Source of the DNA: a virus | Lineage: Duplodnaviria; Heunggongvirae; Uroviricota; Caudoviricetes | Strand: one strand, 5' to 3' | Virus record (IMG/VR): IMGVR_UViG_2534681934_000013 | DNA: 22,551 nucleotides | Shown: positions 16,849-17,270 of the stretch, one piece after another | Position numbering within the stretch: the first letter of the stretch is position 1 | Layout of the letters: each line of letters begins with the position of its first letter | Notes under the pieces: generated by a model | Seen by the model: only the letters and a program-made list of their open reading frames with translations | Databases searched by the model: none | Told to the model about the DNA's origin: nothing | Translations under genes and position numbers: made by a program

Positions 16849-16924
16849 GGCCCTTTAGCTCAGTGGTGAGAGCGAGCGACTCATAATCGCCAGGTCGCTG
16901 GTTCAAATCCAGCAAGGGCCACCA
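16849..16924 (+). tRNA. tRNA with CAU anticodon (Ile2/lysidine-type, ileX/ileZ-like; Met not excluded)
   Basis: 76-nt cloverleaf: acceptor GGCCCTT/AAGGGCC, D-arm GCTC-AGTGGTGA-GAGC, anticodon loop CT-CAT-AA, T-arm GCTGG-TTCAAAT-CCAGC, 3' ACCA. Resembles E. coli ileX as recalled. Confidence 0.85.
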
Positions 16925-17014
16925 TCACAAACCGCCATTAGCTTATCAGGAAGAGCAGACGACACCATAACAGGGTTGTTGGTGCGGGGCCGGGTCCCCG
17001 ATGGCGGTCCATTA

Positions 17015-17091
17015 TCGGTATTCTGCGTTGTTAGCTCAGCCGGACAGAGCAATTGCCTTCTAAGCAATCGGTCAGTGGTTCGACTCCACTA
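17015..17091 (+). tRNA. tRNA-Arg (UCU anticodon; argU/argO-like)
   Basis: 77-nt cloverleaf: acceptor GCGTTGT/ACAACGC, anticodon stem ATTGC/GCAAT with loop CT-TCT-AA, T-loop GGTTCGACTCC, 3' GCCA. Confidence 0.85.
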
Positions 17092-17270
17092 CAACGCGCC
17101 ACACTTATTTTCCAGGCTCGCTTCGGCGGGCCTTTTTTGTATCTGCGCCACGCCCGGCGCATACCAACCACAGAGCCTTTCGGGGGTGAGCTTACGGAGT
17201 GGTCAGTGTGACTTTCTCTGTGGGCAGATCGCTCCCGGGCGTTGGCTCACCCACCCAAAGGAACGTCACG

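Follow-up and report, generated by a model that had tools for sequence, protein, structure and literature searches.

A prophage ileZ-argO tRNA cassette with a degenerate argN homologue, downstream of the Q antiterminator gene in a lambda-like prophage of Escherichia coli O157:H7

Two questions are raised by tRNA genes in a lambda-like prophage: which codons they would read and for whose benefit, and what occupies the DNA between them. In the virus-derived stretch analyzed here, 22,551 nt in full length (the window), ARAGORN found exactly two tRNA genes, both on the plus strand: one with anticodon CAU at 16849-16924, and a tRNA-Arg with anticodon UCU at 17025-17101. Each also forms a cloverleaf that matches the Rfam tRNA model RF00005 (gathering score 29), with 72.5 bits (E = 2e-14) for the CAU gene and 67.3 bits (E = 6e-13) for the UCU gene, far above the chance level. 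The earlier note on this DNA had proposed the same pair, a tRNA(CAU) and a tRNA-Arg(UCU), and both programs bear it out. We use the gene names ileZ and argO, which the pair already has in E. coli O157:H7 Sakai.

The anticodon CAU is ambiguous in its decoding, and the earlier note had allowed for AUA reading if the tRNA were lysidine-modified. The body of ileZ is nearer to the tRNA-Ile2 genes of E. coli K-12 than to its methionine tRNAs: it is identical to ileY at 70 of 76 positions (92.1%) and to ileX at 68 of 76 (89.5%), compared with 52 of 77 (67.5%) for the elongators metT/metU and 46 of 77 (59.7%) for the initiator metZ. The acceptor stem, GGCCCUU/AAGGGCC, is the same in ileZ and ileY, including the pairs C4-G69 and C5-G68, whereas that of metT begins GGCUACG. 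These two pairs, absent from tRNA-Met, are reportedly the determinants by which TilS separates tRNA-Ile2 from tRNA-Met (Ikeuchi et al. 2005), and ileZ has both. The anticodon loop of ileZ is also the same as that of ileX/ileY, and NCBI PGAP annotates the CAU gene as tRNA-Ile and the second gene as tRNA-Arg in EDL933 and other genomes. By its sequence ileZ is of the tRNA-Ile2 type and a predicted AUA reader once lysidine is formed, which upholds the earlier conditional reading. At the top of the anticodon stem ileZ has A27-C43 (window 16875/16891), where ileX/ileY have G27-U43; both sides are changed relative to the host genes, the pair is still non-Watson-Crick, and it is invariant in all aligned phage copies.

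For argO, the UCU anticodon lies in a 7-nt loop, CUUCUAA, identical to that of the host argU, although the two genes share only 53 of 77 positions (69%) overall. The identity elements of ArgRS are A20, C35 and a purine at position 73, and argO has GGAC in its D loop, with A at the position matching 20, and a G discriminator. It is orthologous to the argO of the Stx2 phage Stx2a_WGPS6, with which it is identical at 73 of 77 positions. Like the prophage genes, ileX/ileY and argU carry the CAU and UCU anticodons with the same anticodon loops, but they lie at chromosomal loci and not on a prophage.

The tRNA pair was correctly spotted but is ordinary and already known, since the Sakai annotation names both genes in its lambda-like prophage Sp11: ileZ5, a tRNA-Ile (cat), is ECs_R0060, and argO5, a tRNA-Arg (tct), is ECs_R0059. 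Positions 6722-22551 of the window are 99.86% identical to Sp11, and 16100-18200 are 100% identical in dozens of E. coli O157:H7 chromosomes, including Sakai and EDL933, with no difference inside the cassette. The window and Sp11 also have the same neighboring genes, encoding Q, an AraC-like regulator, TerB, DUF3927 and a SASA esterase, and differ only upstream of 6722, where in the window the early region is preceded by a truncated tail module. The join at 6721/6722 (window 6715-6730) is abrupt: positions 3-6721 are a lambdoid tail module, from the tape measure gene to a shortened J, that is 99.7% identical to O157 genomes, and the Sp11 immunity and early region starts at 6722. Window positions 1-9000 were found as one contiguous stretch in no complete E. 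coli genome of the collection; the prophage may have undergone a deletion or recombination, or the join may have arisen in assembly.

Annotation of ileZ and argO in lambdoid and Stx prophages goes back to the O157:H7 genome papers. The original descriptions are said to be those of Plunkett (1999), Hayashi (2001) and Perna (2001), and the original 933W and O157 genome papers reportedly already proposed a rare-codon rationale for the cassette. Our open-access literature search on ileZ found no relevant paper. The cassette is common: it has matches in 3,060 of 5,426 complete E. coli genomes (56%), some 7,600 copies in total, with up to 13 copies per genome and, among the matches listed, 8-10 copies per genome in O157:H7 strains.

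From promoter to terminator the cassette occupies 16810-17138 on the plus strand. Upstream of it lie a DUF968 gene (13512-14615, Pfam), a RusA gene (14628-14933, Pfam) and the late antiterminator gene Q (14996-15550, plus strand; Pfam DUF1133, 3e-105, and Phage_antitermQ, 5e-8; ECs_2193, annotated as a phage antiterminator). The Q gene ends 1.3 kb upstream of the tRNA cassette, and the earlier placement downstream of the Q region was therefore accurate. Between Q and the cassette are a small annotated ORF, ECs_2192, and the AraC-family regulator gene ECs_2191 (16107-16820, plus strand; Pfam HTH_AraC and HTH_18, and annotation), the 3′ end of which overlaps the tRNA promoter inside the −35 region. 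A review describes PsrB (Z2104, OI-57) as a prophage-encoded regulator that acts on type III secretion and on the GAD system for acid resistance (PMC10877973); following the assignment in that review, ECs_2191 is probably PsrB.

Downstream of the cassette, a TerB-family gene (17271-17702, plus strand, Pfam) and a DUF3927 gene (17699-17866, plus strand, Pfam) are followed by a gene for a SASA carbohydrate esterase (18180-20030, Pfam) and by the annotated holin and endolysin genes, from 20475. A full-length match to the Rfam sRNA STnc100 (17871-18043, 104.7 bits) lies downstream of the DUF3927 ORF and ahead of the SASA esterase gene, and has a terminator-like hairpin after it at 18068-18086. The prophage early region contains a full-length Rfam match to the sok antitoxin RNA (12382-12556, 113.5 bits) that belongs to a hok/mok/sok-type toxin-antitoxin module, alongside which MokC is annotated in Sakai. 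The prophage sRNA HnrS was ruled out at this locus: it is on Sp9, Sp10 and Sp12, not on Sp11.

The earlier note had also remarked that the pair sits where Stx phages carry ileZ-argN-argO, and the comparison with Stx phages confirms this. In a megablast search of phage records, a 305-bp block, 16845-17149, is collinear with the ileZ-argN-argO region of Stx2a, Stx2c, Stx2d, Stx2e and Stx2k phages at 88-92% identity, and it has the same setting, after Q and ahead of the cargo and lysis genes. The left edge of the homology lies 4 nt before ileZ in most Stx phages, and the right edge just past the terminator. Stx2 phages of the 933W type (Stx2a_WGPS6 and phiSTEC1575-Stx2k, 88-90%) share with the window the gene order, the position after Q, the promoter architecture and the terminator. 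They have an intact argN (UCG), however, and stxAB directly downstream, whereas the window has a dead argN, and TerB/DUF3927 where those phages have stx, so that two and not three intact tRNA genes are present. The Stx2e phage phiP27 (92.5%) is closer in layout, sharing both the two-tRNA arrangement and a rearranged middle anticodon arm with the window, but its remnant has the canonical T loop UUCGAGU in place of CCGGGU, and stx2e lies downstream. In Stx2 phages stxA/stxB begin about 90 bp past the shared terminator, and the same slot is filled here by the TerB and DUF3927 genes; on the compared sequences this is a clear case of cargo exchange at a fixed slot.

Among the 125 arrays in the IMG/VR sample, named by anticodon, the three-tRNA form Met(cat)-Arg(tcg)-Arg(tct) accounts for 63, the form seen in the window, Met(cat)-Arg(tct), for 31, Met-Lys(ttt)-Thr(tgt)-Gly(tcc), a separate array type, for 12, and Met-Lys(ttt)-Arg(tct) for 3. 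One array has an Arg(CCG) tRNA after ileZ, and in another the middle tRNA is absent.

A sigma-70-like promoter, TTGATT-17 nt-TATTAT, is predicted at 16810-16838 on the plus strand and ends 10 nt upstream of the first mature nucleotide of ileZ. In a consensus scan it scored 9 of 12, with 4 matches found against 3.8 expected, which is the level of chance. The pattern TTGnnn-17 nt-TATTAT nevertheless stands 9-10 nt before ileZ in all 40 distinct upstream sequences taken from other, divergent prophages, and the hexamers are kept even where the remaining upstream sequence is unrelated. The −35 element comes immediately after an upstream terminator in some prophages. The promoter assignment is therefore based on this cross-prophage conservation and not on the scan score. 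For Stx2 phages, a "pS tRNA promoter" has been named in the interval from q to stx2 (PMC2858043).

At the other end, the hairpin with a T-run that the earlier note had placed after the second tRNA is an intrinsic terminator (17114-17138, plus strand). Its G+C-rich hairpin at 17114-17133 is built of 8 base pairs, including 6 G-C, around a GCUUCGGC-type tetraloop (4 nt), and T6 follows at 17133-17138. The fold has an energy of −15 kcal/mol, compared with −6.5 kcal/mol for shuffled sequences (z = −4.66; 0 of 200 shuffles as stable), and the terminator is kept in 5 of 5 aligned phages. Because promoter and terminator are both conserved, the cassette would be an autonomous unit that need not depend on Q-driven late transcription; it can probably be expressed in the lysogen, and may also be read through from the late promoter on induction.

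The 100 nt between ileZ and argO contain no tRNA detectable with ARAGORN or with Rfam at E ≤ 10, and a search of 16915-17030 against Rfam at E ≤ 10 gave mir-188 as sole match, which is meaningless. A functional third tRNA in this interval was ruled out, and the earlier note, which could fold no third tRNA from a 90-nt spacer (16925-17014), was right that there is none. It was mistaken in regarding the interval as a spacer. Alignment to the argN of Stx2 phages identifies 16932-17011 (plus strand) as a homologue of that tRNA-Arg(UCG) gene, which we call psi-argN: the two align along the flanks, the D arm, the T stem and the acceptor stem (CCGCCAU/AUGGCGG), and these three helical parts, together with U8-A9, are retained in psi-argN. 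Its anticodon arm has 4 extra nt relative to argN and reads GACGAC-ACCAUAACAGG-GUUGUU, a 6-bp stem with two G-U pairs that closes an 11-nt loop, with no UCG at the anticodon position. The T loop is CCGGGU as opposed to UUCGAGU. With these departures from functional argN architecture and no match to the tRNA model, 16932-17011 is best read as an argN pseudogene.

The two lesions can be placed in order. The odd anticodon arm is also present in phiP27 and in one IMG/VR prophage; the IMG/VR copy has an intact T arm with a canonical T loop, and the phiP27 copy has a canonical loop with one T-stem mismatch. Because these copies combine the odd arm with a canonical T loop, the anticodon-arm lesion would have come first and the T-loop lesion second. 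Relaxed constraint is also visible in other E. coli alleles of psi-argN, in which we found T-arm runs of 5 to 14 G, a U8-to-G change and a broken acceptor pair. The middle slot is truncated in some prophages (81 nt) and missing altogether from others, with 2 nt separating ileZ from argO. The G tract of the T arm is slippage-prone; it is 4-5 long in the window and in most other psi-argN alleles, and a homopolymer of 8-14 G lies in the former T arm of three non-O157 E. coli loci (L254, 377-485; L255, 377-482; L256, 377-479). The argN body, that is, acceptor stem and T arm, occurs with an Arg(UCG) or a Lys(UUU) anticodon arm or with the arm deleted, a plasticity seen in the PPompW prophage (L004, 1582-1657) and at the IMG/VR loci L020, L026, L073 and L081. 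We conclude that loss of the middle tRNA is tolerated and has happened repeatedly, whereas both ileZ and argO have been maintained. In about 1,800 of 3,072 E. coli records the best-matching array is at least 95% identical to the window cassette, and among the matches listed an identity of at least 95% over the whole cassette corresponds to the two-tRNA form with psi-argN. The only new detail, and a mild one, is the interpretation of the middle segment as a decayed argN whose lesions can be ordered.

Whether the two flanking tRNAs are kept for decoding or for some other reason is the question on which the alternatives divide. ileZ is almost invariant across the 125 arrays and essentially invariant in a multiple alignment with Stx phages. 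The T stem of argO shows a compensatory exchange, from C50-G64 in the majority allele to G50-C64, which makes up 2 of its 4 differences from the Stx2a copy. Positional diversity values for argO and its trailer were left aside as inflated by indels. The near-invariance of ileZ and the compensatory exchange in argO argue for purifying selection on both genes, and would indicate selection for function or structure. The alternative with the best claim is that the cassette is retained chiefly as a recombination linker or hitch-hiker, at which Q-side and cargo modules such as stx and terB are swapped, with little or no benefit from the tRNAs themselves. The confinement of homology in most Stx phages to 16845-17149, with both flanks different, would suit such a linker, as would the variation of the downstream cargo between phages (stxAB or TerB/DUF3927), the free decay of the middle tRNA and the high copy number of the cassette per genome. 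Near-invariance of ileZ and a compensatory stem change in argO are not random decay, however, the promoter hexamers are kept where their surroundings are not, and relaxed constraint, where it occurs in this cassette, shows itself as the decay of psi-argN, which argues that the flanking tRNAs are under functional selection. We consider a chiefly linking role unlikely, and note that linking and decoding are not mutually exclusive.

If the tRNAs are kept for decoding, the codons that they read should matter to the prophage. AUA, AGA and AGG are the rarest sense codons of E. coli. The codon comparison that the earlier note had asked for was made between 60 CDS of Sakai Sp11 (12,323 codons) and 41 core genes of the ilvI-speD region (15,346 codons), with Sp11 as a proxy, the head, tail and nleG genes being outside the Sp11-matching part of the window. 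ATA is used 9.4 times per 1000 codons in Sp11 and 2.6 times in the core genes (odds ratio 3.6, p = 6e-14), AGA 6.7 and 0.9 times (odds ratio 7.4, p = 9e-17), and AGG 4.6 and 0.8 times (odds ratio 5.9, p = 2e-10), a fold enrichment that is exaggerated by the core set, which consists of fairly highly expressed genes, and that would be halved against genome-wide E. coli values, about twice those of the core set. The enrichment extends across the prophage and is strongest in the cargo (three nleG genes, pchB and ECs_2153), at 20.7 ATA, 24.4 AGA and 8.5 AGG per 1000; the nleG effectors of Sakai Sp11 have 42-96 AUA, AGA and AGG codons together per 1000. Early genes have 11.0 ATA, 7.2 AGA and 6.5 AGG per 1000 and the genes between Q and holin 10.2, 9.3 and 7.4. 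Late genes as a class have 7.5, 4.3 and 3.1, but the Sp11 genes for the abundant structural proteins among them avoid these codons almost entirely: that for the major capsid protein has 0 ATA, 0 AGA and 1 AGG in 341 codons, and the three codons together occur 0 times in 110 codons for the head decoration protein, once in 439 for the prohead protease and twice in 250 for the major tail protein.

The earlier note had suggested that the tRNAs may boost translation of late genes or cargo. The cargo half of this idea is the better supported of the two, and a boost to late genes is not obviously needed, because the abundant late proteins barely use the codons. Codon content has a compositional component, since CGG is also enriched about 4-fold in Sp11 (13.8 as against 3.5 per 1000) even though the matching argN is dead, and the enrichment may mostly reflect composition and not co-adaptation with the tRNAs.

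The codon data also bear on the proposal that phage tRNAs serve mainly in counter-defense, replacing host tRNAs cut by anticodon nucleases such as colicin D, which acts on tRNA-Arg, or systems that cleave tRNA-Lys. The tRNAs of phage T5 restore translation when host defenses cleave tRNAs, and the middle and distal slots of related prophages hold Lys(UUU), Thr(UGU) and Gly(UCC) tRNAs, for codons that are not notably rare. The two tRNAs retained here, however, match exactly the rarest E. coli codons, which are enriched in the prophage, and their anticodon loops, CUUCUAA in argO as in argU and that of ileX/ileY in ileZ, offer no obvious escape from a nuclease that recognizes the loop. We regard counter-defense as a very improbable main function.

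Equally improbable in our view is that the degenerate middle element is not a dying pseudogene but a tRNA-like RNA kept for some purpose other than decoding. Such an RNA could be a platform for the release of ileZ and argO by RNase P/RNase E, a decoy for a tRNA-targeting enzyme or, by analogy with the tRNA-spacer sponge 3′ETS-leuZ, a spacer-derived regulatory or sponge RNA. This reading leans on the acceptor and D arms and on the GACGAC/GUUGUU stem, which are unchanged in all of the sampled alleles. The psi-argN family consists of 8 distinct core sequences in which the odd stem is unchanged, too little diversity for covariation, so that conservation is uninformative either way. A 16-mer scan of a 596-Gb contig collection for divergent copies of the stem gave 120 random matches and no true homologue, the pattern being too short. 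The minimum-free-energy fold of psi-argN is cloverleaf-like but no better than that of shuffled sequences (z = −1.3). The last alternative, that the CAU tRNA is an elongator methionine tRNA and no reader of AUA, can be dismissed with near certainty: ARAGORN does label it tRNA-Met, from the anticodon alone, but its closeness to ileY and ileX over metT/metU and the initiator, its ileY-type acceptor stem with C4-G69 and C5-G68, and the calls of both PGAP and the Sakai annotators are for tRNA-Ile.

The locus is very probably the ileZ-(psi-argN)-argO cassette of a lambda-like prophage, Sp11 or a near-identical relative, that supplies decoding capacity for rare codons. It would be a small self-contained unit of sigma-70 promoter, tRNA-Ile2(CAU), dead argN, tRNA-Arg(UCU) and intrinsic terminator, with the Q/AraC-regulator module on one side and, on the other, the cargo slot that precedes the lysis genes. 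From these features we infer that the cassette tRNAs are expressed, modified and charged, and that translation benefits. The mini-operon would be transcribed constitutively, and the tRNAs released by RNase P and 3′ processing. Once host TilS had formed lysidine at position 34, the CAU tRNA would accept isoleucine and decode AUA; the UCU tRNA would accept arginine and decode AGA and, more weakly by wobble, AGG. Scarce host tRNAs would in this way be supplemented, with more decoding for AT-rich, horizontally acquired genes both in the lysogen and during lytic growth. Against this explanation stands the copy number of the cassette in the O157 genomes listed, which makes any single copy redundant.

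For the annotation of such prophages, the 100-nt "spacer" of the common two-tRNA form may be labeled an argN pseudogene, and expression of the cassette, which has its own conserved promoter and terminator, need not be assumed to follow that of the late operon. For the biology of E. coli O157:H7, the cassette would form part of the background to the expression of AT-rich, horizontally acquired virulence genes.
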